Origin: a virus
Taxonomy: Duplodnaviria > Caudoviricetes
IMG/VR virus record: IMGVR_UViG_3300025608_000063
Span: 1 to 31,482 of that record
Strand: one strand, 5' to 3'
DNA length: 31,482 nt
A program made the position numbers and the translations under genes. Position 1 is the stretch's first letter. Every line of letters starts with the position of its first letter. The notes below the pieces were generated by a model that was not told the DNA's origin, ran no database searches, and saw only the letters and a list, made by a program, of their open reading frames with translations. Shown piece after piece: positions 12,932 through 31,482 of the stretch.

Positions 12932-13461
12932 AACAAACACAAGAAGCCTTAAATAAGTTTGCTAAATATGTTATACAACAAAGTAGAAGTAACTTAACTA
13001 AAGGTAAAAAGAATGCATCTAAAGAACTTTATAACAGTTTAGATAGTGAAGTAAAGGTTTCTAAAAATAGCTTTCAATTAGAGTTTCTAATGGAGCAGTA
13101 TGGTATTTTTCAAGATAAGGGTGTGCGAGGTGCAGGTGGTGTAAGGAAAACAACAAGTAAATTTAATAGAAGAAATAACAAAGGTAAGATTTGGAAGCAA
13201 AAGGGTGGTAATAGTCCTTTTAGTTTTAAAGAGGGTAGAAAGCCATCTGTAAAGCATTTTAAAGAATGGTCTAAAAGAAAAGGTTTATCAGCTTACGCAG
13301 TTAGAGATGCAGTATTTAGGCAAGGAATTAAACCAAGTTTATTCTTTACCAAACCATTTGAGAAAGCATTTAAGAATTTACCAAAAGAGTTAGTACAATC
13401 GTTTGCTTTAGATATGGAAACCTTATTAGAAACAACGATAAAAGATAATTTAAAAAAATAA
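12922..13461 (+). CDS. Putative neck/tail completion protein (HK97 gp10-like)
   Basis: Basic protein with L..S...YGIFQDKG...GIKPSLFF pattern. Confidence 0.5.
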   Translation: MQLKQTQEALNKFAKYVIQQSRSNLTKGKKNASKELYNSLDSEVKVSKNSFQLEFLMEQYGIFQDKGVRGAGGVRKTTSKFNRRNNKGKIWKQKGGNSPFSFKEGRKPSVKHFKEWSKRKGLSAYAVRDAVFRQGIKPSLFFTKPFEKAFKNLPKELVQSFALDMETLLETTIKDNLKK

Positions 13462-13464
13462 GAA

Positions 13465-16596: not shown

Positions 16597-16739
16597 TTAA
16601 AAATATATTAGACCTTTTAAAATACGCAAACGGACAAACAGAAAACATCCGAATAGCACAAGGTAAGAATAAACTACCTATTACATTAAAAGATGGTTAC
16701 AAAGCAATAAAACAAGAAATAAGATGGCAGAAAAAATAA
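16593..16739 (+). CDS. 48-aa hypothetical protein
   Basis: Hand translated MIKNILDLLKYANGQTENIRIAQGKNKLPITLKDGYKAIKQEIRWQKK; ATGA overlap. Confidence 0.7.
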   Translation: MIKNILDLLKYANGQTENIRIAQGKNKLPITLKDGYKAIKQEIRWQKK

Positions 16740-18571
16740 TAATAGATTTAGAAGCTAAAACAGACAAGGCAATAGATGATATTAAAAAACTAAATAAAGA
16801 ACTTAATAATACATCAAAATCTTCTAAAGATGCATCTGATAGTTTAAATAATGCATCAAGTTCATTAGATAGTTCTTCTAATAGTGCGAAAAAATTAGCA
16901 TCAAGTTTTGAGGAAGTGAAAGATAACGGTGGTGCTATTGCTATCCTTGACAGTTTAACAGGTGGTTTAGCTTCACGAGTTAGAGATGCATATGAAGCTA
17001 CTAAACTATTTAACTTTTCTTTAAAGGGTACTAAAAAGGCACTTATAGCTTCAGGTGTAGGTGCATTAGTTGTTGCATTGGGAACTGTTATTGCTTATTG
17101 GGATGACATAACTAAACTTATAGATGGTGCTAATAGAAAATTAAAATACCAAGAGGAAAATTTAAAAAAACAATTAAAGACACAAACCCTTCAATTAGAT
17201 TTATTAAAACAACAAATAGCTATTGAGGAATTAAGAAATGGTTTTAGCCCAAAACTAACAGCTGAATATAAAAAGCAGTTATTAATACAACGTGAACAAA
17301 ACATTGCTTTATTAGAAAATCTACAAACACAATTAGATATTGAAGAAAGTAAGAATAAAGAAGTTACACTTTGGGAAAAAATAAAAATAGCTGCATCAGG
17401 ACAACTTGGTATTGGTTTACAGGCAGAACAAATAGCAAAAGCAACTAATGGAACTTCTAAAAAATCTATTGAAATTCAAGAAAAATTAAATGAAGCTAAA
17501 AAGCTGACAGGTGTAATTGACTTGGAATTAGCACAAATTGATAAAGATGCCGTAGATAGAAAAAAAGGAGATGTAGATAAAACTAAAGAAAGAGAAAAAC
17601 AAAATTCGGATGATTTAGAAAAAATAAGAAAAGCATTAATAGATACAGAAGATAAAAGAAGAAAAGAGCAATTAAGAGAAATAAAAGCTGATTATGATGA
17701 AAAAATAAAATTAGCTGAAAAATATTACGGAGAAGAAAGTGAAGAAGTTTTAGCTTTAAGAGAAGCACAAAAAAATGCTATTGATAGTCAACAAGAAAAA
17801 TTTGATAATGAAGATGAAGGAAAAAGAAAAGCAAAACAAGATAAAGAAAATGAAAAAGCTAAAGCATTATTAGATTTAAAAAACCAAATAAAAGATGCAG
17901 AAGCAGTAACAGAAGAAGAACGCAGGTTATTAGAAATAGAAAAAACAACAGAGCATTACAATAAGCTAATAGAACTTGCAAAACAAAAGGGTTTAAGTAC
18001 TGTTGCTTTAGAAGAAGCTAAAACAAAGGCTTTAAATAAATTAAATCAAACCACTTCTAAAAATGAAATACAGTGGGAGAAACTAACACAACAAGAAAAA
18101 TCACAAGTAATAACACAAGGCTTAAATAACTTAACATCTATTTTAGGAGAAGAAAGTGCAGCAGGAAAAGCAGCAGCAATAGCAAGTGCTACAATAAGTA
18201 CTTATCAATCTGCAACGGATAGTTACAAATCATTGTCGGGTATTCCTATTATAGGTCCTGCATTAGGTTTTGCAGCAGCAGGTGCAGCCATAGCAAGTGG
18301 TGTGGCAAATGTTAAAAAAATAGCATCAACTAAAACACCTAAAGGAAGAGGTGGTGGTGGTTCTGCACCGAGTGTATCAGGTGGTGGTGGTTCAGCACCG
18401 AGTGTATCTCAACCACCTGCATTTAATGTAGTAGGTGCAAGTAGTACTAATCAATTAGCAGATGCTATTGGTAGTCAAACAAAAGAACCTGTTAAAGCTT
18501 ATGTAGTTTCTAATGATGTTACAACTGCACAAAGTATGGATAGAAATATTGTAGATGGTGCAAGTATTTAA
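16724..18571 (+). CDS. Tail tape measure protein
   Basis: Long coiled coil with Ala/Gly-rich hydrophobic segments near both ends; 615 aa. Confidence 0.8.
   Translation: MAEKIIIDLEAKTDKAIDDIKKLNKELNNTSKSSKDASDSLNNASSSLDSSSNSAKKLASSFEEVKDNGGAIAILDSLTGGLASRVRDAYEATKLFNFSLKGTKKALIASGVGALVVALGTVIAYWDDITKLIDGANRKLKYQEENLKKQLKTQTLQLDLLKQQIAIEELRNGFSPKLTAEYKKQLLIQREQNIALLENLQTQLDIEESKNKEVTLWEKIKIAASGQLGIGLQAEQIAKATNGTSKKSIEIQEKLNEAKKLTGVIDLELAQIDKDAVDRKKGDVDKTKEREKQNSDDLEKIRKALIDTEDKRRKEQLREIKADYDEKIKLAEKYYGEESEEVLALREAQKNAIDSQQEKFDNEDEGKRKAKQDKENEKAKALLDLKNQIKDAEAVTEEERRLLEIEKTTEHYNKLIELAKQKGLSTVALEEAKTKALNKLNQTTSKNEIQWEKLTQQEKSQVITQGLNNLTSILGEESAAGKAAAIASATISTYQSATDSYKSLSGIPIIGPALGFAAAGAAIASGVANVKKIASTKTPKGRGGGGSAPSVSGGGGSAPSVSQPPAFNVVGASSTNQLADAIGSQTKEPVKAYVVSNDVTTAQSMDRNIVDGASI
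18350..18409 (+). repeat. 30-bp tandem duplication encoding GGGGSAPSVS twice
   Basis: Two copies differing at 2 synonymous positions. Confidence 0.9.
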
Positions 18572-18576
18572 AAATG

Positions 18577-18607
18577 CAAAATAATTATAAAATAACTATA
18601 TACGGAT
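18577..18607 (+). promoter_or_regulatory. Putative late promoter
   Basis: CAAA-N14-ACTATATA(18595-18602)-N5-ATG(18608). Confidence 0.65.
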
Positions 18608-18646
18608 ATGGCAATAGTATATATAAACAAATAAAACAGATTTAAA

Positions 18647-19582
18647 ATGGATGTGATTGAATTGATTATCGATGATGAAGATGCTATTGGAGTAGAAGCT
18701 ATAAGTTTGGTAGAACACCCTGCAATAGAAGAAGATTTTATTGCCTTAAAAAACCAAAAAACAGAATTTAAAACAATAGATAAAGATAAAAGAATTGTTG
18801 TTGGTTTGGCATTGATACCTAATAAACCTATTTATAGAAAGAGTGGGGATAATGAGTATTATGTTTTCTTTTCAAAAAATACAGTTAGAAAATCTGCAGA
18901 ATTATATCTTAAAAATCACAATAGTAATAATGCTACTTTAGAACACGAAATAAAAGTAGAGGGTGTAAGTGTTGTTGAAAGTTGGATAGTTGAAGATGTA
19001 GAAAAAGATAAGACTGCTTTATATGGTTTAAATGCAGTAGAAGGTGCTTGGGCAGTTGTTATGAGAATAAACAACGAAGAAGTATGGCAAGATGTAAAGA
19101 AAGGAATTTACAAAGGTTTAAGTATTGAAGGATATTTTGCTGATAAAATGGAAAGACCTAAAGAAAATTTACAAGAGGAATTAAGTAAGATAGAAGAAGC
19201 AGAGGCAGAGTATATGCTATCTCAAATAAAGGCAGTTATTAAAAGTGATAAAAGATTAAAGAAAGGTAAAAGAACAGAAATGGAAAGTTTTTCTGATTAC
19301 CCACAATCTGTAAGTAATAATGCTAAAAGAGGTATCGAACTAAATAAGAAAGTAAATAATAAATGTGCTACACAGGTTGGTAAGGTAAGAGCACAACAAT
19401 TAGCAGACAGAAAACCTGTAAGTATGGAAACTATTAAACGTATGTATTCATATTTAAGTAGAGCAGAAGAATACTACAAAACAGGAGATACAGAGGCTTG
19501 TGGTTATATATCTTATTTACTATGGGGAGGTAAGTCTGCAAAGAGTTGGGCAGAAAGCAAAATCAATAAGAATGAAAAATAA
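18647..19582 (+). CDS. Prohead protease (XkdF-like serine protease) with extra C-terminal domain
   Basis: AISLVEHPAIE, LEH, VESWI and KGLSIEG motifs; upstream of scaffold and capsid. Confidence 0.8.
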   Translation: MDVIELIIDDEDAIGVEAISLVEHPAIEEDFIALKNQKTEFKTIDKDKRIVVGLALIPNKPIYRKSGDNEYYVFFSKNTVRKSAELYLKNHNSNNATLEHEIKVEGVSVVESWIVEDVEKDKTALYGLNAVEGAWAVVMRINNEEVWQDVKKGIYKGLSIEGYFADKMERPKENLQEELSKIEEAEAEYMLSQIKAVIKSDKRLKKGKRTEMESFSDYPQSVSNNAKRGIELNKKVNNKCATQVGKVRAQQLADRKPVSMETIKRMYSYLSRAEEYYKTGDTEACGYISYLLWGGKSAKSWAESKINKNEK

Positions 19583-19718
19583 CAATAGTACACCGAGTAG
19601 AACAAGTCCAAGAGCAAGTAAAAGAGGTTGCTTATGTAAGGATGGTAAATACTCTAAAAAGTGTTGTGATGGTAGCTTACAGGCACAAGGAATAGGTAGG
19701 ACATCAACTACTATATAA
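19572..19718 (+). CDS. 48-aa Cys-rich basic protein
   Basis: RGCLCKDGKYSKKCCDGSLQAQGIG; start at 19572 preferred over 19500. Confidence 0.7.
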   Translation: MKNNNSTPSRTSPRASKRGCLCKDGKYSKKCCDGSLQAQGIGRTSTTI

Positions 19719-19727
19719 ACGAAAATA

Positions 19728-19758
19728 CAAATTAATTTTTTTAATACTATATAATTAT
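19728..19758 (+). promoter_or_regulatory. Putative late promoter
   Basis: CAAA-N14-ACTATATA(19746-19753)-N5-ATG. Confidence 0.65.
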
Positions 19759-20349
19759 ATGAAACCAAGTGAAATGTTAGACCAAGTAAAAACTCTTTTA
19801 GGGGTTGAAGTAAAACTTGAGCAAATGAAATTAGAAAACGGAACTGTTTTAGAAGCAGATAAATTCGAGGCAGGAAACGAAATCTTTATCGTAACAGAAG
19901 ATGAGAAAGTAGCTTTACCTGTTGGAGAATACGTTTTAGAAGATGGTCAAACTTTAGTAATCGAAGAAGAGGGTATCATTAAAGAAATGAAATCTGAAAA
20001 CGAAGAAGCTGAAGAAGTAGAGGTAGAAGTAGAAGCAAAAGAAGAAGAAGAAATGGGTTATGCTACTAAAGAAGAACTTGCAGAGGTTAAATCAATGATT
20101 GAAGAAATAAAAGCAATGTTAGAGCCTAAAGAAGAAATAATCGAAGAACCAAAAGAAGAAAAACAAGAGTTATCTTCTGATGTTGTAAACGAAATTCCTG
20201 AAGAAGTAAAACAAGAATTATCTGAACCTGCTGCTGAACCAATTAACACAAACGCAGAAGTTTCTAAAACAGAAGTAAAATTTAATATAGCATCAAAAAG
20301 AAAGATGTCTACATTAGATAGAGTAATGAATAAAATAAATAAACTTTAA
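19759..20349 (+). CDS. Putative capsid scaffold protein
   Basis: Very Glu-rich with basic C-terminus; lies between protease and capsid genes. Confidence 0.65.
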   Translation: MKPSEMLDQVKTLLGVEVKLEQMKLENGTVLEADKFEAGNEIFIVTEDEKVALPVGEYVLEDGQTLVIEEEGIIKEMKSENEEAEEVEVEVEAKEEEEMGYATKEELAEVKSMIEEIKAMLEPKEEIIEEPKEEKQELSSDVVNEIPEEVKQELSEPAAEPINTNAEVSKTEVKFNIASKRKMSTLDRVMNKINKL

Positions 20350-20376
20350 TAAACAATAAATTAAAATTAAATAAAA

Positions 20377-21297
20377 ATGAGTGTATCTTTAACATCAACT
20401 TATGCAGGTGAATTTAGTGGTAAGTATATCGCAGCTGCATTATTATCTGCATCAACTTTAGATAGTGGTGCTATTTCAATTCTACCAAACGTAAAATTTA
20501 AATCTGTTATCCAAAAAGGAGCAACTGATGACATCGTAAAAGATGCATCTTGTGATTTTGTAACTAATCAAGGAACTTTAACTTTAACAGAAGCAGTATT
20601 ACAACCTGAAGAATTTCAAGTAAATTTAGAATTATGTAAGAAAGATTTACATAACTCTTGGGAAGCTGCTCAAATGGGTTATTCTGCATTTGATAATTTA
20701 GCACCATCTTTCGCTGAATTTGTAATTTCTCACGTTGCTGCTAAAGTAGCTGATAGAACAGAGAAAAACATTTGGAGTGGAGCAACTGCAACAAGTGGAC
20801 AATTCGATGGGTTTACTGCAAAGTTAACTGCTGATAGTGATGTAATTGATGTAGCTGCTGCAACTGTAACTTCTGCTAACGTAATCGCTGAATTAGGTAA
20901 AGTAGTAGATGCTATTCCAACTGCAGTTTACGGACAAGAAGATTTAACTTTATATGTTTCTTCAAATGTAGCAAGAGCATACATTAGAGCATTAGGAGGT
21001 TTCGCTGCAACTATCGGTGCAAATGGTTCTGATAACAAAGGAACTCAATGGTACAATGGTGGAGAGTTATCTTTCGATGGTATCAACATTTTTGTTGCTA
21101 AAGGATTAGCAGATGACACTATGATTGCTGCACAAAAATCAAACTTATATTTCGGAACAGGTATCTTAAACGACCAAAACGAAGTGAAAGTAATTGATAT
21201 GTCAGACATCGATGGTTCACAAAATGTAAGAGTAATAATGAGATTTACTGCAGGGGTACAACACGTATTCGGTGGAGATATCGTTCTTTATTCATAG
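20377..21297 (+). CDS. Major capsid protein
   Basis: 306 aa, strongly biased codons, follows protease and scaffold, followed by a terminator. Confidence 0.8.
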   Translation: MSVSLTSTYAGEFSGKYIAAALLSASTLDSGAISILPNVKFKSVIQKGATDDIVKDASCDFVTNQGTLTLTEAVLQPEEFQVNLELCKKDLHNSWEAAQMGYSAFDNLAPSFAEFVISHVAAKVADRTEKNIWSGATATSGQFDGFTAKLTADSDVIDVAAATVTSANVIAELGKVVDAIPTAVYGQEDLTLYVSSNVARAYIRALGGFAATIGANGSDNKGTQWYNGGELSFDGINIFVAKGLADDTMIAAQKSNLYFGTGILNDQNEVKVIDMSDIDGSQNVRVIMRFTAGVQHVFGGDIVLYS

Positions 21298-21321
21298 TAA
21301 ATTAATTAATAATCATTAAAG

Positions 21322-21350
21322 AGGGTGGGTAAAATAACCTGCCCTTTTTT
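21322..21350 (+). terminator. Rho-independent terminator
   Basis: AGGGTGGGT-aaaata-ACCTGCCCT followed by a T run. Confidence 0.85.
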
Positions 21351-21370
21351 ATTTAAAACAATATAAAAAT

Positions 21371-21898
21371 ATGGCTTGTTCATTAACAACAGGTAGAAAA
21401 GTACCTTGTAAATCGGCAGTAGGTGGTATAAAAACTATTTACTTTGCTGATTATGGAACTTTAGGAGATGCTACCATATCTGCAGGAGAAATAACTGCAT
21501 TTGCAGGTACTCCTGAATTTTTCCAATTTGATGTAAAAGGTAGTTCTGCTTTAGAAACTGCTATTAACTCATCAAGAGAAAATGGTACAACTTTCTACGA
21601 AAGTACATTAACTATGTCTTTAACTTTTCAAGATAAGGCAACACAAGAAGAATTAAAATTAATTGCACACGCAAGACCTCACGTAGTTGTAGAAGACTAT
21701 AACGGAAACTATTTCTTATTAGGATTAGAACACGGGGCAGAGGTAACAGGTGGTTCTATTGCTACAGGGGCAGCAATGGGAGATTTAAGTGGTTACTCTT
21801 TAACGATAGTAGCACAAGAAACTGCACCTCCTTATTTTGTAACTCCATCAGCAGTAACAGATGATGCGTCTTCGGTACAGATTGACCCAACTGCATAA
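21371..21898 (+). CDS. Putative major tail tube protein
   Basis: 175 aa, Thr/Ala/Gly-rich, biased codons, has its own terminator. Confidence 0.65.
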   Translation: MACSLTTGRKVPCKSAVGGIKTIYFADYGTLGDATISAGEITAFAGTPEFFQFDVKGSSALETAINSSRENGTTFYESTLTMSLTFQDKATQEELKLIAHARPHVVVEDYNGNYFLLGLEHGAEVTGGSIATGAAMGDLSGYSLTIVAQETAPPYFVTPSAVTDDASSVQIDPTA

Positions 21899-21920
21899 TA
21901 ATTATTTATATTTTTAAAAG

Positions 21921-21950
21921 AGGGGTATCTTAATTGATATCCCTTTTTTT
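21921..21950 (+). terminator. Rho-independent terminator
   Basis: AGGGGTATC-ttaatt-GATATCCCT followed by a T run. Confidence 0.85.
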
Positions 21951-21983
21951 ATTCTAAAAGCTATGCTTTTTTACTAACACACA

Positions 21984-22014
21984 CAAAAAATACTTTTTAT
22001 TACTATATACTATT
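21984..22014 (+). promoter_or_regulatory. Putative late promoter
   Basis: CAAA-N14-ACTATATA(22002-22009) after a terminator. Confidence 0.6.
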
Positions 22015-22034
22015 ACAAAACGAAGTTTTTAAAT

Positions 22035-22379
22035 ATGAAAGTATTAACGACAAGTACAAACCCACAAACTATAAAAGTTATACCGAGAGTTTATGTTGCA
22101 TCTGTTACTTTAAAATTAAGAGATGATAGCACAAATGAGGTAACTACTGCAAGTATAAATACTGTTACTGATAAAGACTATTTAAGTTTATCTTATGCAT
22201 TTAATTTAAAAGAGGGTAGATATTATGATTTAACACTTTTAGATGGTTCTGATGTAATATATTTAGATAGAGTGTTTTGTACAGACCAAACAATAAACCA
22301 AGATACCAATGATTACTATTCAGTTAATAAAAATGAGTATGTAAGTAAAGATGGTAATAACGATTATATAGTTTTATAA
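22035..22379 (+). CDS. Putative virion protein (head closure-like)
   Basis: 114 aa, beta-rich, precedes the portal gene. Confidence 0.45.
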   Translation: MKVLTTSTNPQTIKVIPRVYVASVTLKLRDDSTNEVTTASINTVTDKDYLSLSYAFNLKEGRYYDLTLLDGSDVIYLDRVFCTDQTINQDTNDYYSVNKNEYVSKDGNNDYIVL

Positions 22380-22380
22380 T

Positions 22381-24135
22381 ATGAATGATTTAAGAGTTTT
22401 AAACTTATCGACTTATACAAGTCCTAAAATAAAAGAAACGAAAACAGATAACTTTGTTTCTTATGGAGAGGACAACAACTACTTTCAGTTTTTAATTGAT
22501 AGATATAATGGTAGTGCAACAAATAATGCTATTATAAATGGAATGTCAGAAATGATATTCGGTAGAGGTTTGGATGCTACAGATAGCAATAGAAAACCTG
22601 AAGCCTATGCACAAATGATTACTTTATTCCACGATGACTGTGTAAGAAGATTAGCATCTGATTTAAAGTTAATGGGACAATGTGCAATGCAAGTTATTTA
22701 TTCTAAAGATAGAAAGACAATAGCAAGAGTAGAGCATATACCTGTTGAAACGTTAAGAGCAGAAAAATGTAACGAGAAAGGAGAAATTGAAGCGTACTAT
22801 ATGCACCCTGATTGGGCAAACTATAAAAAGAACGATACACTAAAAAGAATAGAAGCATTTGGTTATGGTAAAGAACCAATACAAATATATTATATTAAAC
22901 CTTATAAGGCAGGTTATAAATATTATTCTCCTGTAGATTATCAAGGTGGTATTCAATATGCAGAGTTAGAAGAAGAAATATCTAATTATCATATAAATAA
23001 TATTATGAATGGGTTAGCACCAAGTATGTTAATCAATTTTAATAATGGTACTCCTGACCCTGAACAAAGACAATTAATAGAAAATAGAATATATCAAAAG
23101 TTTAGTGGTAGTTCTAATAGTGGTAAGTTTATTTTATCTTTTAATGATGATGCAAATACTGCTGCAAGTATAGAACCAATACAGTTAAGTGATGCACATA
23201 ACCAATACCAATTCCTTTCTGATGAAAGTATGCGTAAAATAATGGTAGCACACCGAGTTGTTAGTCCTATGTTATTAGGTATAAAAGATAGTAGTGGATT
23301 GGGTAATAATGCAGATGAATTAAAGACTGCATCTTTATTAATGGATAACACAGTTATTAGACCATTTCAGACACTTTTAATAAAAGCCTTTGATGATATA
23401 TTAGCTTACAATGATATTAGCTTAAACCTTTATTTTAAGACATTACAACCTTTAGAATTTAAAGAGTTAGATAATGTAGTAGATGAAGAAACAAGAGAAG
23501 AAGAAACAGGTGTTAAGTTATCTAAAGAAAACCAAGATTTCAACGATGAAGAAATGCTTGATGCATTAGATGGAGAAGAAATCTCTGATGAATGGGAACT
23601 TGTAGAAAAAAGAGAATATTCAGAAGATAATGAAAGTGTAGAAGATTGGGCAGATAAATTAATAAAAGAAAAGAAAAGTACATTAAATAAATTAGCAGAC
23701 TTTATAAAATCAAAACCTAACGACAAAAGTAAGTTAGATAAGAGTTACTATAAAATACGATATGAATATTCAGAAAAGTATTCAAGTGGTAATTCAAGAA
23801 AGTTTTGTAAAAATATGATGGGTAGAACTGCTAAAGGTGTTGTGTATAGAAAAGAAGATATAGACCAAGCAAGTTTTAGTGGTGTAAACAAATCTTTTGG
23901 ACATAAAGGTAATAACTATTCTTTATTTAAATACAAAGGAGGTGTAAACTGTGGACATTTTTGGAGTGAGAATTTATACAGATTAAAATCTAAAACAGAA
24001 AAGTATATCTCAAAAGGTAAAGAAGTAGATAACATACCAAAGAGTTATGTACCAAAAGGAGAAGAATATAAGACTGCAGAAATAGCACCAAAGGATATGC
24101 CTAATAATGGAAGACACCCTAACAATAAAGGATAA
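22381..24135 (+). CDS. Portal protein with C-terminal extension
   Basis: YGEDN..., YYSPVDY, NGLAPSMLI, FSGSSNSGKFIL, AHRVVSPMLLGI and VIRPFQ resemble PBSX/HK97-type portals. Confidence 0.85.
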   Translation: MNDLRVLNLSTYTSPKIKETKTDNFVSYGEDNNYFQFLIDRYNGSATNNAIINGMSEMIFGRGLDATDSNRKPEAYAQMITLFHDDCVRRLASDLKLMGQCAMQVIYSKDRKTIARVEHIPVETLRAEKCNEKGEIEAYYMHPDWANYKKNDTLKRIEAFGYGKEPIQIYYIKPYKAGYKYYSPVDYQGGIQYAELEEEISNYHINNIMNGLAPSMLINFNNGTPDPEQRQLIENRIYQKFSGSSNSGKFILSFNDDANTAASIEPIQLSDAHNQYQFLSDESMRKIMVAHRVVSPMLLGIKDSSGLGNNADELKTASLLMDNTVIRPFQTLLIKAFDDILAYNDISLNLYFKTLQPLEFKELDNVVDEETREEETGVKLSKENQDFNDEEMLDALDGEEISDEWELVEKREYSEDNESVEDWADKLIKEKKSTLNKLADFIKSKPNDKSKLDKSYYKIRYEYSEKYSSGNSRKFCKNMMGRTAKGVVYRKEDIDQASFSGVNKSFGHKGNNYSLFKYKGGVNCGHFWSENLYRLKSKTEKYISKGKEVDNIPKSYVPKGEEYKTAEIAPKDMPNNGRHPNNKG

Positions 24136-24138
24136 GAT

Positions 24139-24639
24139 ATGGCAACAGCATTATTTATAAATAGAACAGATTTAGTAAAGAACAGTATTCTTGATGGTAA
24201 CACAGATACGGATAAGTTTATACAATTTATTAAGGTAGCACAACAGATAAACATACAGAATTATTTAGGTACTGATTTATATAATAAAATAAGTGCAGAT
24301 ATATTAGCAGGTACATTAACAGGAAACTATTTAGCTTTAGTAGAAGATTATGTACAACCTATGTTAATACATTATGCTATGATGGAGTATTTACCTTTTG
24401 CTGCATATCAAATAAAGAATGGTGGAATTAGTAAACACAATTCAGAAAATGCAGATGGTGTATCTAAAGAAGAAGTAGATTATTTAGTACAAAAACAAAG
24501 AAACTTTGCAGAGTATTATACAAGAAGATTTATAGATTATATTAGTTTTCACGAAGAAGATTTCCCTGAATACAATAGTAATAACAATGAGGATATAAGT
24601 CCTGATACAAATGATTTGTTTAACGGATGGGTGCTATAA
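24139..24639 (+). CDS. Putative head-tail adaptor
   Basis: FI...AQ..IQNYLGTDLY helical protein directly after the portal gene. Confidence 0.6.
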   Translation: MATALFINRTDLVKNSILDGNTDTDKFIQFIKVAQQINIQNYLGTDLYNKISADILAGTLTGNYLALVEDYVQPMLIHYAMMEYLPFAAYQIKNGGISKHNSENADGVSKEEVDYLVQKQRNFAEYYTRRFIDYISFHEEDFPEYNSNNNEDISPDTNDLFNGWVL

Positions 24640-24731
24640 CATATAAACCGAAACAATCTAACATTATAAAGTTAGAAAAATATTTAACTGATAAAAAAGA
24701 TAAAAATGATAAATTGGGGAAAAATATATAA
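24627..24731 (+). CDS. 34-aa hypothetical protein
   Basis: Hand translated MGAITYKPKQSNIIKLEKYLTDKKDKNDKLGKNI; bridges the intergenic gap. Confidence 0.45.
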   Translation: MGAITYKPKQSNIIKLEKYLTDKKDKNDKLGKNI

Positions 24732-24879
24732 TACAACCTATTGGGGTATTGGAGTAATAAATGACATCTTTTGGGGTGTTGTTTACTACAATAATAAAGT
24801 AAGAAAAGATTTTGTAGATAGAGTAATTGCAGATGGTGGTGTTATAGAAAACTCAATGTGTATAAACGTAATAAAATAA
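24706..24879 (+). CDS. 57-aa putative virion protein (WG repeats plus DRV..DGG motif)
   Basis: Hand translated MINWGKIYNTTYWGIGVINDIFWGVVYYNNKVRKDFVDRVIADGGVIENSMCINVIK. Confidence 0.75.
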   Translation: MINWGKIYNTTYWGIGVINDIFWGVVYYNNKVRKDFVDRVIADGGVIENSMCINVIK

Positions 24880-24883
24880 AGAT

Positions 24884-26011
24884 ATGGCAGTAAAACCAAG
24901 TTTAGCACTTATTCCAAGTGGTGTAAAAGCAAATAAAGTATATTCAGTATTACCTGCTGATGGTACAGGAGACTTTGATTTCTCAAGAAGTGGAAGTGCT
25001 ACAAGGATAAATAAAGATGGACTAATTGAAACAGTAAGTAGTAATGTATCAAGACTAAACTATCCTATGATAGATGGTGTTGTAAGTGGGTGTCCAAGTT
25101 TATTGTTAGAGCCTGCAAGAACTAATTTAGTACAGTATTCAGAAGATTTTACATCTTGGATAAATTCAAGTTCTTATATAACTTCTGACTATGGTATTTC
25201 TCCTGATGGTTCACAAAATGCAAGTAGATTGTTGTTTACAGGTACAAGTCAAACTTTATCTAAAAATATTGGAACAAATGGCACTTTAAGTTATAGTATT
25301 TATGTAAAAGGTGTTAAGGGAGAAACTATAAATATTTCTATGGCATCAGGTTCTGATGAAAATTTTTTACTTAATGGAGAATGGCAAAGATTAAGTTATT
25401 CAGATACAGTAAGTAATTCTACTATAAATATAAATACTTTTGGTAATAAAACTGCAAGAGATTTGTTAATTTGGGGAGTGCAATTAGAAGTAGGCTCTTA
25501 TCCAACATCATACATACCAACAAACGGAAGTACAGTTACAAGAGATGCTGAAAGTTGTGAGCAAACTCCACCAAGTGGTATAATAGGACAAACAGAGGGT
25601 ACTGTTTATGCAGATGTTAATTTTGTTGGAGTAACCGAAGCAATAACAAATCAAATTTTCTTTGTGCGAGAGCAAGGAAGTAACAATGGATATTTATTTG
25701 CTGGATTTTATCAAGGTAGATTAAATTGTGGTATGAAGGTTGGTGGTTCACTTTTGTTTGATGATTATTTTAGTTCAGCTTTAACTAAAGGAAGATATAA
25801 AATTGCAATTTCTTATAAAAGTGGAGATACAAAAATATATGTTAATGGTATTCAAACTGGTTTTAAAAATAATTCCTTTGGAGTAACTAATTTTGCTCAA
25901 ATTTTCTTAAATGGTTCTGCTGGAACAAATCAATTAGGAGATGTTAATAGAGATTTTAAACTTTACAACACAAGATTAACAGACCAAGAATTAATTGCAT
26001 TAACAAGTTAA
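24884..26011 (+). CDS. Fibre/spike protein with carbohydrate-binding (LamG/ConA-like) domains
   Basis: FSRSGSATRIN, LLLEPARTNL, WGVQLEVGSYPTSYIPT and C-terminal YNTRLTDQEL LamG-like end. Confidence 0.75.
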   Translation: MAVKPSLALIPSGVKANKVYSVLPADGTGDFDFSRSGSATRINKDGLIETVSSNVSRLNYPMIDGVVSGCPSLLLEPARTNLVQYSEDFTSWINSSSYITSDYGISPDGSQNASRLLFTGTSQTLSKNIGTNGTLSYSIYVKGVKGETINISMASGSDENFLLNGEWQRLSYSDTVSNSTININTFGNKTARDLLIWGVQLEVGSYPTSYIPTNGSTVTRDAESCEQTPPSGIIGQTEGTVYADVNFVGVTEAITNQIFFVREQGSNNGYLFAGFYQGRLNCGMKVGGSLLFDDYFSSALTKGRYKIAISYKSGDTKIYVNGIQTGFKNNSFGVTNFAQIFLNGSAGTNQLGDVNRDFKLYNTRLTDQELIALTS

Positions 26012-26138
26012 TTTTCTTTACATAACAAACACAATAAGATAAGATAATTAAAAAAACTATACATATAAACACTAATAGTTATAACCATAAGGGTAACAAT
26101 TACACCTATTAAACTAACAAGAGTAAATAAATTAAATT

Positions 26139-26492
26139 ATGATACGCATAGCGAAATATGAATTTTTAAACAAAGAACAAGCAGAAACTAAAATACAAGG
26201 TTTAGGAGTAGCTGAAGATGAAAACGGTAACGAATACCCAACGCATAAACATACTATTGTTCAATTAGGTAATATTGTGTTAGAACAGGGCGAATACGAT
26301 GAAGAGGGTAACGAAACAGTTGCACCTGTATTATCTGATAAATGGCACGTTGATGTTTTATGGAAAGGTTTAGAAGCAGATGAAGATGGTGTTATTGACC
26401 ACCCTTATGGTTGGAAGTCTTATGCAGTTGATATTGATGGCGATGGAGTACATTCATTTTTAGGGTTAAGTTACAACTCATATAAATTCTAA
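26139..26492 (+). CDS. Hypothetical protein (possible fibre-associated)
   Basis: Acidic 117 aa after the fibre gene; WHVDVLW and HSFLG motifs. Confidence 0.6.
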   Translation: MIRIAKYEFLNKEQAETKIQGLGVAEDENGNEYPTHKHTIVQLGNIVLEQGEYDEEGNETVAPVLSDKWHVDVLWKGLEADEDGVIDHPYGWKSYAVDIDGDGVHSFLGLSYNSYKF

Positions 26493-26494
26493 CA

Positions 26495-26656
26495 ATGGAA
26501 ATGCAGGATATAAAGATAGCGTTGATTAATTTTTTGACTTTTACAATTAGTTTTAGTAATGTAGAGCAATGGCTTAAATTAACGCTATTAGTTGTATCTA
26601 TTATTTATACTATTCAAAAGATTATTGAATTAAAAAATAAAAAAAAAGATGAGTAA
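26495..26656 (+). CDS. Putative small holin/antiholin
   Basis: Hand translated 53 aa, two hydrophobic segments, basic C-terminus, overlaps the endolysin start. Confidence 0.6.
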   Translation: MEMQDIKIALINFLTFTISFSNVEQWLKLTLLVVSIIYTIQKIIELKNKKKDE

Positions 26657-26975
26657 ATATTTTAAAGAGATAGATGATGGTAATATGGATGCTAACTTTT
26701 TACATAAGCTGGATAAAGCAAGAAGTATTGCAGGTTTACCTTTTAAAATAAATTCTGCTTATAGAAGTCCTGAACATCCTTTATCTATTAAAAATCCATC
26801 TTCAAGCCATATTAAAGGTTTAGCGGTAGATATTAAGTGTACTGATAGTAGAACACGTTTTATTATAGTTGATGCTTTAATTAAGGTTGGTTTTAATCGT
26901 ATAGGTATTGCAGATACATTTATACACGTAGATTTAGATTTAGATAAAAGCAATAAAGTAATTTGGACTTATTAG
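26649..26975 (+). CDS. Endolysin, peptidase M15A family
   Basis: SAYRS..H, SSHIKGLAVD and FIHVD zinc peptidase motifs. Confidence 0.9.
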   Translation: MSKYFKEIDDGNMDANFLHKLDKARSIAGLPFKINSAYRSPEHPLSIKNPSSSHIKGLAVDIKCTDSRTRFIIVDALIKVGFNRIGIADTFIHVDLDLDKSNKVIWTY

Positions 26976-27153
26976 TAAAGATTAAGCGATAAACTTATCA
27001 GATATAGACCAATATGTATAGAAAAGTTTAAAAAGTTTTCTTATAGCAAACTAATAGTTTGTAAAGGGATAAAAAAGTAAACAAGGGTACATATTACTCT
27101 TATACGTACTACGAGGGTACATAATACATTAATAGTTATAACTAAACGTGAAT

Positions 27154-27291
27154 ATGGAAATAAACTTAATCTTATTAGTACCAGAAGCTATGTTAATTGG
27201 TTGGCAATATTATCAGCCAGATGAAACTTTTGATTATTCAGAGGTTAATTTATTTTTATTTTTTATACAACTCCAATTTAGGTGGAATTAA
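27154..27291 (+). CDS. 45-aa hydrophobic hypothetical protein
   Basis: Hand translated MEINLILLVPEAMLIGWQYYQPDETFDYSEVNLFLFFIQLQFRWN. Confidence 0.65.
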   Translation: MEINLILLVPEAMLIGWQYYQPDETFDYSEVNLFLFFIQLQFRWN

Positions 27292-27302
27292 AATGGTAGG
27301 TT

Positions 27303-27695
27303 ATGAATAAGATTTTAAATTGGTTTACAGGAGGTGTAATAAAAGAAGTAGGTAAGGTTGTAGATAATCTATTTACTACAGAAGAAGAACGCTTAAAAGC
27401 GAAGAATGAGATAATTAAAGTACTCCAGGAACAGCAATTAGAACTACAGAAACTACAAACAGAAATAATAGTTACAGAAGCTAAAGGTAATTGGTTACAA
27501 AGAAGTTGGAGACCTATCTTAATGTTAGCTTTTGGTTTTATAGTTATTTATGTAAAGTTTGTTGCACCTTTATTTAGTTTACCTATACCACCTTTAGAGA
27601 ATGAATTTTGGAACTTATTAGAGTTAGGTATTGGTGGATATGTTATTGGTAGAAGTGTAGAGAAAGTAGCAAAGAACATTACTATTAATAGATAA
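27303..27695 (+). CDS. 3TM-type holin (GTA holin-like)
   Basis: TEEERLKAK...EAKGNWLQRSWRP...GGYVIGRSVEK signature. Confidence 0.85.
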   Translation: MNKILNWFTGGVIKEVGKVVDNLFTTEEERLKAKNEIIKVLQEQQLELQKLQTEIIVTEAKGNWLQRSWRPILMLAFGFIVIYVKFVAPLFSLPIPPLENEFWNLLELGIGGYVIGRSVEKVAKNITINR

Positions 27696-27860
27696 TTTAA
27701 ATTTTACTTGTTTTTTTAAAAAAAAATATATAACTTTGTATTTTTTATTATTACTACTTATATAAAAATAATTATATAAAGATATTTATAAATATTGTTA
27801 TAAAAACATATATAAAAAAAATAATAAATATATATAAAATAAAAATATAAGAGTTCTGAA
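27696..27860. other. Extremely AT-rich non-coding region, candidate origin/promoter region
   Basis: Repeated TATA(T)AAA units; TAACTTTG box at 27731-27738. Confidence 0.35.
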
Positions 27861-27869
27861 ATATTATCT

Positions 27870-28250
27870 ATGCCTAAAAAACCAAGTAGAAAAACATTAG
27901 TAAAGAAGTTAGATACTATATTTAGTATATATATAAGAAGAAAAAATAGTATAAATGATATTGCACAATGCATCACCTGTGGGAAGCAAGACCATTGGAA
28001 GAAAATGCAGAATGGTCATTTTATGAGTAGGAAACATTATGCTACAAGGTGGGATGAAGATAATGTAGAGGTACAATGTATGGTTTGTAACGTTTATAGA
28101 TATGGAGAACAATATTTATTTGCTAAACATTTAGGAGAAACTAAAGCAGATGCTTTATTAGTTAAAAGTAGACAGATACAAAAGTTTACAGATACTGATT
28201 TAATAGACTTAATAGAATTATACACAAATAAGGTTAATAACTTACCATAA
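27870..28250 (+). CDS. ninG: NinG/Rap-like recombination endonuclease
   Basis: FSIYIR, CITCG, GHFMSR and RWDEDNVEVQCMVCN. Confidence 0.88.
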   Translation: MPKKPSRKTLVKKLDTIFSIYIRRKNSINDIAQCITCGKQDHWKKMQNGHFMSRKHYATRWDEDNVEVQCMVCNVYRYGEQYLFAKHLGETKADALLVKSRQIQKFTDTDLIDLIELYTNKVNNLP

Positions 28251-28329
28251 TTATATATATATAAAAGATTTATAAGTACTATATTTGAATTGTCATTTAA
28301 TTACTATATTTCTCAATATCCTTGTTTTA

Positions 28330-28362
28330 AAAGGGTTTCATTAATTTGGAACTCTTTTTTTT
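28330..28362 (+). terminator. Rho-independent terminator
   Basis: AGGGTTTCA-ttaatt-TGGAACTCT followed by a T run. Confidence 0.75.
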
Positions 28363-28377
28363 GTGCTTATTTAAAAA

Positions 28378-28430
28378 TAATTAACATTTATTGTTGGTAA
28401 TTAAAATATTATTTATATATTTGTACCATA
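28378..28430 (+). promoter_or_regulatory. Bacteroidota housekeeping-type (early) promoter
   Basis: TATATTTG at 28416-28423; same layout as 4162-4214. Confidence 0.7.
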
Positions 28431-28452
28431 GTAATAATTAAAAAACAAGAAT

Positions 28453-28656
28453 ATGAGATTAATTGACAAATTAAAACCCGAGTACAAAGTAGTTTTTGAA
28501 AAGAATAATTTAGAATATTCTTCACTTATAGAAAGAATTATAAATTGTTTTGAGCAGTTAGAATATGTATCAGACATACCATTTGGTATTTGGATGGATA
28601 TAAAATTCTTTACCAACGTATTTAGTCCTTTTGAATTATTTACAGATAATATATAA
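28453..28656 (+). CDS. Hypothetical protein, paralog of 28953..29153
   Basis: MRLIDKLKPEYK...SPFELFTD. Confidence 0.8.
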   Translation: MRLIDKLKPEYKVVFEKNNLEYSSLIERIINCFEQLEYVSDIPFGIWMDIKFFTNVFSPFELFTDNI

Positions 28657-28659
28657 GTT

Positions 28660-28767
28660 ATGAGAGAAAGCGATTGTTGTGGTGCATTACCACTATGGGA
28701 AACAGATATATGTTCAGATTGTGGAGAACACGCTGAATTTTATTATACAGATGAAGATATTATTTAA
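28660..28767 (+). CDS. 35-aa zinc-ribbon protein
   Basis: Hand translated MRESDCCGALPLWETDICSDCGEHAEFYYTDEDII. Confidence 0.7.
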   Translation: MRESDCCGALPLWETDICSDCGEHAEFYYTDEDII

Positions 28768-28777
28768 AACAAAAGAT

Positions 28778-28942
28778 ATGAGTAAAATAAACAATGATGC
28801 TTGGGAAAAATTAAAAAAACAGATTGAGTATCATTTAAAAGAAGACCCTAACTTAACAGACATAGCAATTAACTATCAAGTTAGAATACCAAAAATAGGT
28901 ACAAGAAATTATTTAAAATTAGGAGTAACAATAGATAATTAA
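28778..28942 (+). CDS. 54-aa hypothetical protein
   Basis: ATG at 28778 after an A-rich leader, preferred over GTG at 28679. Confidence 0.7.
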   Translation: MSKINNDAWEKLKKQIEYHLKEDPNLTDIAINYQVRIPKIGTRNYLKLGVTIDN

Positions 28943-28952
28943 AAACAAGAAT

Positions 28953-29153
28953 ATGAAATTAGTAGACAGATTAAAACCAATTTATCGAAGCAAGTTAGGA
29001 ATAGCTAATATAAAATATCCTGTTATTGTTGGAAATATTTTAGATGATTTAGAAAGAGCAGAATTTGTAGGTGATTTAAAATATGATACAGTTATACAAT
29101 TATCAGTTATTTTAGATACACATATTTCTCCTTATAACTTTTTTACAGAATAG
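28953..29153 (+). CDS. Hypothetical protein, paralog of 28453..28656
   Basis: MKLVDRLKPIYR...SPYNFFTE. Confidence 0.8.
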   Translation: MKLVDRLKPIYRSKLGIANIKYPVIVGNILDDLERAEFVGDLKYDTVIQLSVILDTHISPYNFFTE

Positions 29154-29172
29154 ATAATTAAAAACAATAACA

Positions 29173-29310
29173 ATGACACACGCAGAAGATATAAAAAGAA
29201 TTAAAGAAAACGACTACCAAGAATATTTACATTACAGGATAAATGCTTTAGAAAAGAGAGTAGAGTTTTTAGAGGCACAATTAGAGGTATCTAAACAGAT
29301 GATAAAATGA
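29173..29310 (+). CDS. 45-aa coiled-coil protein
   Basis: Hand translated MTHAEDIKRIKENDYQEYLHYRINALEKRVEFLEAQLEVSKQMIK; ATGA overlap with the next gene. Confidence 0.7.
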   Translation: MTHAEDIKRIKENDYQEYLHYRINALEKRVEFLEAQLEVSKQMIK

Positions 29311-29498
29311 ATAAAGCAGAATTAATAAACAAAATTACTTTGTTAGATACATCTATTTATAGAAAAATTGGTTTTTTAAAAAGTGGTGTATATTTACACG
29401 AACCATTAATGTATCGAAAAAAACTTTATGAAGTTTATGAAAAATTAGACATAGAAACTTTAACTAAATTATTAGAATTAAAACAGGTAATAAAATGA
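29307..29498 (+). CDS. Hypothetical protein
   Basis: ORF track, 63 aa. Confidence 0.65.
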   Translation: MNKAELINKITLLDTSIYRKIGFLKSGVYLHEPLMYRKKLYEVYEKLDIETLTKLLELKQVIK

Positions 29499-29621
29499 AA
29501 ATAATATATAAGATACTAAATAAATTAATTAACTTAATTGTTGAAATAATTATTATATTAGTATTTTGTATTATATTTACAACATTAATAACAAGAATAT
29601 TAAATTTAAAAATTAATTAAA

Positions 29622-30008
29622 ATGAACAACAACAAATTAAAAGAACTTTATTTAAAGTACGAATTAGACAAAGAAGATTTCTTTAAACACCAACATTACA
29701 CTATTATTACAAGACAAGGTATTGATAAGATACAGGCTAAAGAACAGATGTACGTTAGTTATGAAGTAATAAGATGCGAACCTAACTTTGCAGTATTTAA
29801 AGCTAAAGCACAAAAAGAGGGTAAGATGATAGAAACATTTGGCTCTGCATTAAAAGGAGAGGGTTACAAAGATGGTAATACTAATTCTTGGTATGTAGCT
29901 GAAATGGCAGAGAAAAGAGCAATGAGTAGAGCAGTTTTAAAATTAACAGGTTTCTACGAGTTAGGAGTATTTGGTGAGGATGAAAGCGAAAGTTTTAAAA
30001 AGAAATAA
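29622..30008 (+). CDS. Putative single-strand annealing protein, allele B
   Basis: Protein identical to 139..528 except GANY/GEGY and the C-terminal end; many synonymous changes. Confidence 0.55.
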   Translation: MNNNKLKELYLKYELDKEDFFKHQHYTIITRQGIDKIQAKEQMYVSYEVIRCEPNFAVFKAKAQKEGKMIETFGSALKGEGYKDGNTNSWYVAEMAEKRAMSRAVLKLTGFYELGVFGEDESESFKKK

Positions 30009-30043
30009 TTAAGTATATTAACCTAAATTAAAATAGAAATATT

Positions 30044-30379
30044 ATGAGTTTACAATTAACAGGAAAAATTAAATTAATCGGAGAAAAACAAACCTTTGAT
30101 AGTGGTTTTCAAAAAGTAGAATTTGTTATTACAACAAACGATAAATACCCACAAGATGTAAAATTTGAAATAGTACAAGATAAAGTAGATGATTTTATAA
30201 AATATAATAAAGTTGGTACTGATGTAGATGTTTCATTTAACGTTAGAGGTAATGAGTATCAAGGTAAATATTATGTAAGTTTATCTGCTTGGAAAGTTTT
30301 TAAATCTGATGCTAATGCACCTGCTACTGATATAGGAGTGCCGACAGAAGAATTAGAAACAACTGATTTACCATTTTAA
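30044..30379 (+). CDS. DUF3127-like OB-fold SSB, allele B
   Basis: F.K.EFVI...YPQ...V.VSFNVRGNEYQGKYY.SL.AWK plus acidic tail ending DLPF. Confidence 0.8.
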   Translation: MSLQLTGKIKLIGEKQTFDSGFQKVEFVITTNDKYPQDVKFEIVQDKVDDFIKYNKVGTDVDVSFNVRGNEYQGKYYVSLSAWKVFKSDANAPATDIGVPTEELETTDLPF

Positions 30380-30386
30380 TAATTAG

Positions 30387-30416
30387 AGGGTAGTGTAAAA
30401 GCTACCCTTTTTTTTT
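30387..30416 (+). terminator. Rho-independent terminator (same as 895..924)
   Basis: AGGGTAG-tgtaaaag-CTACCCT followed by a T run. Confidence 0.85.
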
Positions 30417-30457
30417 ATATATTAGTAAAAATTTAATGACAAAATTAATTACATAAA

Positions 30458-31357
30458 ATGACAGAACAAGAATTACAAGAAAATAACGACCATTTAATGT
30501 TTATGCAATCAATTGAGGAAGATTGTAAAGTAGATATTAATAAAAAAATAGAACACCCACCTGTGGCAATTAGTTTTAAAACAAAACAGGTAGTATTAAA
30601 AAATGGAGAAACAAAAGAATTCCCAATCCCTATCGGAACTTATGGAAATTTTAGTTTTATACAAGCACCACCTAAATCAATGAAAACTTTTTTTTGCAGT
30701 TTATTAGGTAGTGCATATACAAACTCAAATGGTGCATATACTAAAGGTATGTGTTCTTTTAGAGATGGTAAGGAATTTATACATATAGATACCGAACAAG
30801 GTATATGGCACTCTCAAAGAGTATTTAAACGTATTCAATGGATGAATAAAGGTTTTGATTTAGGTTTTTATCACACCTTTGCTTTAAGGCAAATCAATTA
30901 TAATTCAAGGATTGATTTTATAGAATATTATTTAGAGGGTTTAAAAGAAGATGGCAAAGAAGTAGGATTGGTTATTTTAGATGGTGTAGCTGATTTAGTT
31001 AGTGATGCAAATAATTTAGAGGAAAGTTCTGCAGTTGTTCAAAAAATAATGCAATGGACAAGTCTTTATAATTGCCATATAGTTACAGTAATTCATAGTA
31101 ATTTTGGTAGTGATAAGCCAACAGGACATTTAGGAAGTTTTCTTGAGAAAAAAGCAGAAACACAAATACAATTAGAAAAAGACCCAAATAAATTAGGTTG
31201 TATAACAGTTACTTGTAAAAGAAGTAGAAATACACCTTTTGAACAATTCGATTTTAAATTAGATAATTCAGGGTTACCATACATAATAAATGATACAGAT
31301 AACTCTTTAAATTACAATAAAGAATATACTTTTAAAAATAAAGAAATACCTTTTTAA
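30458..31357 (+). CDS. AAA/RecA-like helicase, allele B
   Basis: APPKSMKT, HIDTEQ, ILDG, VIH and GHLGS; divergent homolog of 974..1861. Confidence 0.8.
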   Translation: MTEQELQENNDHLMFMQSIEEDCKVDINKKIEHPPVAISFKTKQVVLKNGETKEFPIPIGTYGNFSFIQAPPKSMKTFFCSLLGSAYTNSNGAYTKGMCSFRDGKEFIHIDTEQGIWHSQRVFKRIQWMNKGFDLGFYHTFALRQINYNSRIDFIEYYLEGLKEDGKEVGLVILDGVADLVSDANNLEESSAVVQKIMQWTSLYNCHIVTVIHSNFGSDKPTGHLGSFLEKKAETQIQLEKDPNKLGCITVTCKRSRNTPFEQFDFKLDNSGLPYIINDTDNSLNYNKEYTFKNKEIPF

Positions 31358-31367
31358 ATAATCAAAC

Positions 31368-31482
31368 AATGTCTAAATTAATTAAAAAAGCAGCAGAGAA
31401 ACACCAAACTTGGATAAATGTAGTAAACTCCTTTGGGTGTCCTAAAAATATATCAGAAGATATAGTACAGGAAATGTATATT
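31368..31482 (+). CDS. ECF sigma factor 5' part (truncated by window end)
   Basis: MSKLIKKAAEKHQTWINVVNSFGCPKNISEDIVQEMYI, same as the start of 1873..2391. Confidence 0.85.

Follow-up and report, generated by a model that had tools for sequence, protein, structure and literature searches.

The 31,482 nucleotides analysed here, referred to as the window, very probably represent the path of an assembler that went once round a circular marine phage of 29.5 kb, carrying a replication arm A, and then continued into the divergent arm B of a rarer, co-existing variant. The SSB and helicase genes of arm B likely entered as a unit, through recombination with a phage lineage that has an ERF-type annealase. 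The phage itself is best read as a 29,483-bp circular phage of flavobacterial type. Both arms are real and were found in several samples. The features discussed below are collected in Table 1.

Table 1. Features of the window with positions, strand and supporting evidence
Feature	Position	Strand	Evidence
Tailed-phage genome, circular or permuted, one complete turn including arm A	1..29483		Pfam/PHROG: terminases, portal, tape measure, endolysin, NinG
Exact 127-nt repeat of 1-127; the arms likely diverge at this vertex of the assembly graph	29484..29610		Exact match; JGI k list
Putative single-strand annealing protein (SSAP), allele A, 129 aa	139..528	+	Atlas lead; slot equivalent of ERF in sister phages
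ssbA (98 aa), likely an SSB, from a family without a name; beta-rich basic core and acidic tail ending in DLPF	592..888	+	Family profile, model, phrog_24909 (function unknown)
Intrinsic-terminator-like hairpin and T-run, arm A copy	895..925	+	z -2.8
Helicase allele A (helA), AAA_25, 295 aa, NKEIPF end	974..1861	+	Pfam, helicase tree
Sigma-factor-like gene	1873..2391	+	phrog_1740; TIGR02937 E 1.6e-05, below cut-off
Allele B of the putative SSAP, 128 aa; 91% nt and 98% aa identity to allele A	29622..30008	+	Arm comparison
ssbB, DUF3127-family SSB, 111 aa	30044..30379	+	PF11325 E 3.8e-24; phrog_4932 'single strand DNA binding protein'
Arm A-type (recipient) terminator separating the two imported genes	30387..30417	+	z -3.4; 31-nt identity
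Helicase allele B (helB), AAA_25, 299 aa, nested among ERF-lineage helicases	30458..31357	+	Pfam, helicase tree, AU test
Recipient-type NKEIPF end of helB, likely right-hand crossover remnant	31337..31357	+	Sliding windows, helicase-end survey
Sigma allele B, codons 1-38; its last 57 nt, where the contig stops, equal 1930-1986	31369..31482	+	Arm comparison

Comparison of the two arms

The regions 1..1986 and 29484..31482 align collinearly, which confirms the common gene layout given in the preliminary description of this DNA. At the start of the arms the match is exact over 127 nt (1-127 = 29484-29610), and the arms are identical again over 132-212. At the other end the match is exact over 57 nt only (1930-1986 = 31426-31482) and may be left over from an assembly stage with k=55. 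The putative SSAPs and the sigma proteins had been called almost identical with mostly synonymous differences, and this holds: 125 of 128 amino acids of the SSAP alleles are the same, the codon differences comprise 27 synonymous and 3 nonsynonymous ones (91.4% nucleotide identity, pS 0.42), and the two sigma fragments agree in 38/38 amino acids.

The genes in between differ. As described earlier, the SSBs are alike only at their DLPF ends. The stretch common to both genes consists of the last 17 nt (872-888 = 30363-30379), and outside the tail no similarity between ssbA and ssbB was detectable, either by BLASTP (E 0.65) or by profile-profile comparison, which aligned the 13-column DLPF tail only. 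The identical terminator was likewise found, with 31 nt in common (895-925 = 30387-30417), whereas shuffled sequences (n=200) gave longest matches of 12.1 on average and 18 at most; the T-run of the arm A copy carries a 12-nt insertion relative to arm B. For the helicases, the re-convergence at the NKEIPF end (1841-1861 = 31337-31357) stands, but the two proteins are not unrelated: with 152 identities over 295 amino acids (51%) they are homologous, and both belong to AAA_25.

Outside the arms the window is an ordinary tailed phage according to its Pfam and PHROG matches, including a large terminase of the Terminase_3 type (Pfam). The nearest cultured relatives of its genes are mostly phages of Flavobacteriaceae. 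A scan of GTDB returned 12 loci, all in MAG bins, of which 7 are titled Flavobacteriales or flavobacterial genera and 5 are titled as unrelated taxa, a result too weak for naming a host. A promoter scan was uninformative (17 sites versus 15.4 expected).

Probable assembly path and recurrence of arm B

Positions 1-29483 close into a circle, and an open reading frame (29307-29498) is intact across the junction of 29483 and 1. The window is the complete record of a JGI metagenome collection, and two database entries (L172/L175) are identical to it. The JGI workflow uses metaSPAdes with k 33,55,77,99,127 (10.1101/2020.09.30.320929), and the exact overlap of 127 nt equals the top k of this general workflow, as the preliminary description had supposed; this is a match to the workflow, not one specific to the record. 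Terminal repeats of k-mer length have been described as a product of assembling circular templates (CheckV paper, PMC8116208). The overlap observed here corresponds to such a repeat but differs in that it is followed by a 1.9-kb variant arm, and a test for identical start and end would therefore not flag this contig as closed.

Sequencing depths were taken from Logan contigs, which give one flat figure per contig, for the best 4 of 20 runs (X1-X4). In X1, which is possibly the source sample and thus not independent, the contigs that connect the backbone with arm A show 0 differences and have depths of 84/98/98, and the contigs of arm B have depths of 15 and 14. In X2 we found 126/123 for ssbA/helA, 36/39-40 for ssbB/helB, and 157 for the shared start of the sigma gene, close to the sum of helA (123) and helB (39). 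The depth of arm B is 33 in X4, with arm A pieces at about 50, and 4-6 in X3. Arm B contigs thus reach about 15-30% of the depth of arm A in X1 and X2, corresponding to ratios of arm A to arm B of about 6.5:1 (X1) and 3:1 (X2). Since the contig depths are flat and those in X1 do not add up (84 upstream, 98 for arm A, 15 for arm B), these figures indicate that the arms are unequal but do not give exact frequencies. Among the filtered X1 matches listed there was no contig over most of 31351-31482, which proves nothing. The overlap equal to k, the unequal depths and the contigs containing a single arm support the earlier suggestion that the assembly walked both arms of a population bubble. This removes a false 'terminal repeat' and provides an example of one contig concealing two genotypes.

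Arm B recurs outside the window. The independent viral contig L001 carries it with identities of 96% (SSAP), 98% (ssbB), 95% (helB), and 95% (sigma), together with backbone-like upstream DNA at 88% identity, and another locus, L177, carries arm A at 98% nucleotide identity. In X2 a single contig spans the SSAP-ssbB join (29921-30416), and in X4 a single contig extends from ssbB through the terminator and helB to the start of the sigma gene (30003-31389). Both arms were present together in 4/4 runs examined, from 4 studies (2017 and 2023; one possibly the source). These findings support the view that two SSB-helicase modules circulate on one family of backbones, arm B being joined to backbone-like flanks. 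This part of the preliminary description is upheld by the recurrence of both arms in several samples; exchange by way of the short conserved anchors is not, as these look recipient-derived (see below).

We considered three other explanations for the second arm. First, arm B could belong to a sister phage with about 88-95% identity that has only the flanks in common; the cassettes would then mark separate lineages instead of alleles exchanged within one population. The pS of 0.42 between the SSAP alleles, the 88-93% identity of L001 to the window with differing small genes, and the nonadditive depths in X1 agree with such a phage. However, the arms are identical over 1-127, 132-212, and the last 57 nt, and in X2 their depths sum at the shared sigma start and a window-identical contig covering 29260-29519 lies at the depth of arm B (36.5 versus 35.8). 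Moreover, the SSB and helicase of type A are also combined with different SSAP alleles and gene content (L177), a sign that strains recombine with one another. We consider a separate sister lineage unlikely. Second, a pure chimera, with the arm of an unrelated phage attached by mis-assembly, would be in keeping with ssbB and helB being native to a different, ERF-type lineage. This outcome, named earlier as one that would overturn the reading, is extremely improbable: the SSAP-ssbB and helB-sigma joins recur in independent contigs (L001; X2; X4), the SSAP of arm B is 98% identical to that of arm A and groups with it, and L001 refutes a chimera unless it was mis-assembled in the same way. Third, a real headful-packaged recombinant with a heterozygous 2-kb terminal repeat, for which the preliminary description had given about 6.7% redundancy, has hardly any probability left: a Terminase_3-type enzyme is present and the apparent redundancy (1999/29483 = 6.8%) is plausible for pac phages, but the overlap equals k=127, heterozygous ends would give arms at 1:1 instead of the depths reported above, L001 and L177 carry one arm type each, and the repeat starts 10 kb away from the small-terminase gene.

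Gene families and the pairing of SSB with helicase

The protein encoded at 592..888 is likely an SSB, as judged from its slot, its basic aromatic core, its acidic tail, and weak links to the Pfam SSB family; binding of ssDNA is predicted. Its family has 907 representatives at E<=0.001 and bears no family name. The gene fills the slot of the DUF3127 SSBs beside either type of annealase. In the family alignment 81/129 members end with [DE][LIVMF]PF, and Y28, Y41, Y64, W72, and several K/R residues are conserved; the core of ssbA has a pI of 9.0 and the tail a net charge of -4. A tail and the gene context were among the arguments for regarding DUF669 as an SSB (PMC4889955). The window protein itself does not match the Pfam SSB profile PF00436. 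One family member (P0123) reaches 27.6 bits with this profile (cut-off 26), and SSBs account for 10/11 of its matches to PDB sequences (best E 0.005). In the family as a whole 4/129 members match Pfam SSB at E<=0.05, and 7/129 match ribosomal L22e weakly. A relationship to ribosomal L22 was considered and dropped, as the family profile gave only weak L22 matches against PDB sequences, which we read as chance.

The structure model of ssbA is beta-rich with a pLDDT of 85 (48 in an earlier model from a shallow alignment). Foldseek against the PDB gave no match at E<=0.001, and none of 430 Foldseek candidates reached Z>=2. Comparison with 48,161 chains yielded a best Z of 2.3 (rmsd 4.0, 52 residues aligned) with no SSB among the matches listed, and the 5 matches in BFVD at E<=0.001 are all unnamed or uncharacterised. 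As far as a predicted model can tell, these searches neither exclude an OB-derived fold nor point to a new one. A likely function can thus be proposed for a family of >900 protein clusters annotated as hypothetical, which has a homologue in the cultured Elemovirus phages.

The second SSB gene, ssbB, matches PF11325 with 85.1 bits (gathering score 27) and phrog_4932 with E 2.3e-31. We therefore assign it to the DUF3127 family by its sequence, the label SSB being taken from PHROG, record annotations, and PMC8004638; a search with the DUF3127 profile found no solved relative. With PF13481 (AAA_25, RepA-like) helA scores 35.3 bits, above the cut-off of 27, and helB 25.6 bits, just under it. For 139..528 there was no Pfam, NCBIfam, or PDB-sequence match. 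Its description as a putative SSAP is a lead only, given by an Atlas score of 0.86 to a 71% SSAP_Sak cluster and by a position equivalent to that of ERF.

To see which genes travel together, 403 locus stretches were reduced to 217 nonredundant SSB-helicase pairs after removal of duplicates and of every locus in which near-complete genes for both proteins did not lie within 2.5 kb. Four types of pair were found: ssbA with a non-B AAA_25 helicase (151 pairs; 123 with the window-type annealase, 18 with ERF, 10 unknown), DUF3127 with a B-clade helicase (47 pairs; 35 with ERF, 3 with the window-type annealase, 9 unknown), DUF3127 with a DnaB-like helicase (7 pairs), and a third DLPF-tailed family of 93-105 aa with a DnaB-like helicase (12 pairs). 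The slot is thus filled by at least three SSB families; ssbA and the third one align at the tail only. The survey of the combinations A/A, B/B, A/B, and B/A that had been suggested earlier gave 0 mixed pairs (ssbA with helB or DUF3127 with helA) among the 198 pairs of SSB and AAA_25 helicase. All four combinations of annealase and SSB occur, and the annealase family varies independently of SSB and helicase. On the helicase tree the SSB type changes once and the annealase family five times, and on the weakly supported annealase tree the SSB type changes ten times.

The subclade of the window contains 28 pairs, namely 10 A/A, 16 with ssbA and a helicase allele C that is 66-71% identical to helA, and 2 B/B. 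The occurrence of the A and C helicases under the same ssbA indicates that the helicase can change without the SSB; B was seen only as a block. The data fit a pairing of SSB with helicase, but the events are few (1 on the helicase tree and 2 B cassettes in the subclade) and adjacency alone could explain why the two genes travel together.

Probable origin and persistence of the B cassette

Searches with ssbB and helB return mostly phages that have an ERF-family gene (Pfam ERF) before the SSB and a sigma protein only about 30% identical. The ssbB protein is 81-92% identical to most of these ERF-lineage homologues and 75% identical to three of them. In a helicase tree of 57 rows, arm B and L001 fall into a clade of 21 rows (SH-aLRT 99), the other 19 members of which are of the ERF type; arm A lies in a separate clade of 15 rows. 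Forcing helB into the clade of the recipient helicases, a group named after the tree was seen, was rejected (delta lnL 241.5, p-AU 3e-98). Among annealases, that of arm B has its nearest relatives in arm A and in the loci L173, L001, and L174. A sliding-window comparison places ssbB and most of helB in arm B nearer to the donors, and the terminator and the part from about 31330 on nearer to arm A. These breakpoints are approximate because the closest donors are only about 82% (ssb) and about 75% (helicase) identical in DNA.

The short anchors have a restricted distribution. The terminator core was found in 39 loci (not de-duplicated), 37 of which have ssbA, the others being arm B and L001. With the intergenic region of arm A, arm B has 31 nt in common and the 93 other ssbB loci no more than 18. 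Helicases ending with IPF make up 35/152 of the non-B type and 2/48 of the B clade, both of the latter on this backbone, and 0/142 at loci where the sigma protein is <70% identical. This distribution suggests that sequence of the recipient was retained at the imported genes or between them, and the anchors accordingly look like recipient-derived remnants of an old import. Present exchange more likely proceeds through the long flanks of 90-100% identity than through the short anchors, and the identical stretches 1-127 and 132-212 suggest that exchange in the flanks has been recent.

Between arm B and L001 pS is 0.17 (ssb) and 0.27 (helicase), with pN/pS of about 0.07-0.08. As the alleles of the backbone differ to a similar degree (pS of 0.19-0.44 for the annealase and 0.22-0.31 for close sigma genes), the values lie in or near the range of backbone alleles, suggesting that the import is old and now a resident polymorphism.

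We propose the following course of events. Crossovers just past the SSAP stop codon and within the last ~25 helicase codons would have replaced ssbA and helA, so that the KEIPF end and the sigma start of the recipient were kept. A further pair of crossovers, one at the DLPF codons and one downstream of them, could have brought in the recipient terminator; alternatively, the two genes might have entered separately. Since then the cassette would have persisted under purifying selection as an allele of the slot, and it now likely moves between strains by way of the long similar flanks. The two SSBs would have one and the same function, to coat ssDNA and to dock partner proteins by the acidic DLPF tail, and each would travel with its own helicase clade and not with the annealase.

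What maintains two alleles is a separate question. One possible, though not probable, cause is that some hosts have defences responding to one phage SSB, or to its complex with ssDNA, and not to the other. Phage SSBs are described as triggering or modulating several defence systems, including retron Eco8, Hachiman, DARNA, and Nhi (10.1101/2022.08.27.505566; 10.64898/2026.02.22.705581), and for Nhi recombinant phages escaped through an acquired SSB allele (10.1101/776245). The co-occurrence of both alleles in runs of four studies (2017, 2023), the age of the cassette, and the filling of the slot by at least three SSB families agree with this. On the other hand, the arms are tied here to no identified host or defence system, the helicase alone varies (alleles A and C) where ssbA is the same, and the neighbourhood of the slot gains and loses methyltransferases and small genes. 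The last two observations mean that a recombination-prone slot with equivalent alleles explains the data without selection; in our analysis neutral mosaicism by relaxed recombination would be sufficient. A wider proposal, which we regard as doubtful, holds that the slot is a long-lived selected polymorphism in which the widespread ssbA family and DUF3127 take each other's place as obligate pairs of SSB and helicase, whatever the annealase, both being kept in the sea because flavobacterial defences sense only one SSB. The two arms offer a natural experiment, with two dissimilar SSBs on a shared backbone with a shared annealase, and this natural swap allows the sensitivity to SSB-sensing defences and the need of each SSB for its own helicase to be tested directly.

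Mosaicism of this kind is already known for phages; what is added here is the donor lineage, the SSB-helicase coupling, and an unnamed family of likely SSBs. Interchangeable gene variants co-existing on near-identical phage cores and recurring across samples have been described as flexible gene modules or metagenomic islands (Bellas et al., PMC7468147). Those variants are described as diverged homologues or as resulting from gene gain and loss, whereas here the SSBs are dissimilar and a donor lineage is identified. In staphylococcal phages with Sak or Sak4 and a cognate Ssb (PMC5499656), SSAP and SSB are likewise neighbours with alternative alleles at one locus. There the SSB is linked to its cognate recombinase; here it follows the helicase clade, and annealases that are 98% identical stand beside two unrelated SSBs. 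Divergence-tolerant exchange with traces of homology at the flanks is also known from phages with Rad52-like recombinases and relaxed homologous recombination (PMC3945230); the difference is that the recombinase identity of 139..528 is only a lead. No description of an SSB-helicase swap was found among the literature listed on DUF3127 SSBs, SSB/annealase swaps, and Elemovirus replication modules, most subscription papers being outside the scope, and the accessible text of PMC7077304 on other Baltic Flavobacterium phages contains nothing on SSB swaps.

Cultured phages show related arrangements. In Lillamyvirus and Muminvirus the putative annealase recurs (77%) and a PF11325 gene follows two genes downstream, but the primase/helicase modules are others; the idea that the presence of DUF3127 might track the host strain in these phages was dropped, as a PF11325 gene occurs in 3/3 records examined. 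A parallel among the cultured Flavobacterium phages is found in Elemovirus, where the replication block is swapped between elemoA and elemoE/F between flanks of 100% and 98.4% identity, a swap that may already be in print. As in the window, the flanks are near-identical and the sequences converge at the helicase end, the primase/helicases of the swapped block having only their last 28 aa in common (89%). The Elemovirus block differs in comprising a replication protein and the primase/helicase, and the ssbA homologue (44%) lies outside it, where it adjoins an ERF gene.

Proteins of the SSB slot and their helicases

The position between the putative annealase and the helicase, held by ssbA in arm A and by the DUF3127 gene ssbB in arm B, can also be occupied by a third family of DLPF-ending proteins of 93-98 aa. 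A Pfam search with this family gave no match; its partner is a DnaB-like helicase in 12 of 12 pairs, and we consider it a candidate for a further SSB family.

The helicases of the subclade (the window's own group of SSB-helicase pairs) and some DnaB-like helicases end in EIPF, EVPF or NIPF, which resembles an SSB C-terminal motif. Such an end might dock the helicase onto host replisome partners. Allele C, a third helicase allele found beside ssbA, is the most frequent of those found in the subclade and forms a long branch (0.38) within the arm A clade of the helicase tree.

Insertions and exchanged blocks

Comparison of the loci revealed insertions in the gaps on both sides of the SSB gene, one kind being an ORF of 47 aa and another an MT-A70 methyltransferase together with one more gene. 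In a phage of the donor lineage (ERF-annealase phages, the likely source of the arm B cassette) an HNH-like ORF is inserted beside the SSB gene. Between the cultured Elemovirus phages elemoE and elemoA, the exchanged block consists of the replication protein and the primase/helicase, with near-identical flanks.

Positions of the features in the window and in related viral contigs (L)
Feature	Location
Third DLPF-tailed family	L057:5399-5680, L059:4664-4948, L037:3765-4058
Helicases with EIPF/EVPF/NIPF-type end	window 1841-1861, window 31337-31357, L010:4386-5300, L057:5790-6704
Helicase allele C	L002, L173, L174, L254
Insertions flanking SSB gene	L002:2445-4241, L001:1253-1396, L081:5400-5795
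Elemovirus exchanged block	elemoE (L329) 3220-6007, elemoA (L330) 3269-6383
ParB-fused methyltransferase/S-adenosylmethionine-synthetase-like gene	window 7806-9803
Second methyltransferase	window 2826-3566
Strain-variable small genes	window 29312-29480, 2378-2690

Other genes of the window

A scan of 24 ORFs detected neither a DNA polymerase nor a primase domain, so the phage likely relies on host enzymes. The window encodes a DNA methyltransferase fused to ParB, and the gene after it resembles S-adenosylmethionine synthetase (PF00438, E 1.8e-10). A second methyltransferase is also present. The presence of small genes in two regions varies among strains, as seen from L177, a contig with the arm A type, and from joints and loose ends in the Logan contigs of the sequencing runs X2-X4.
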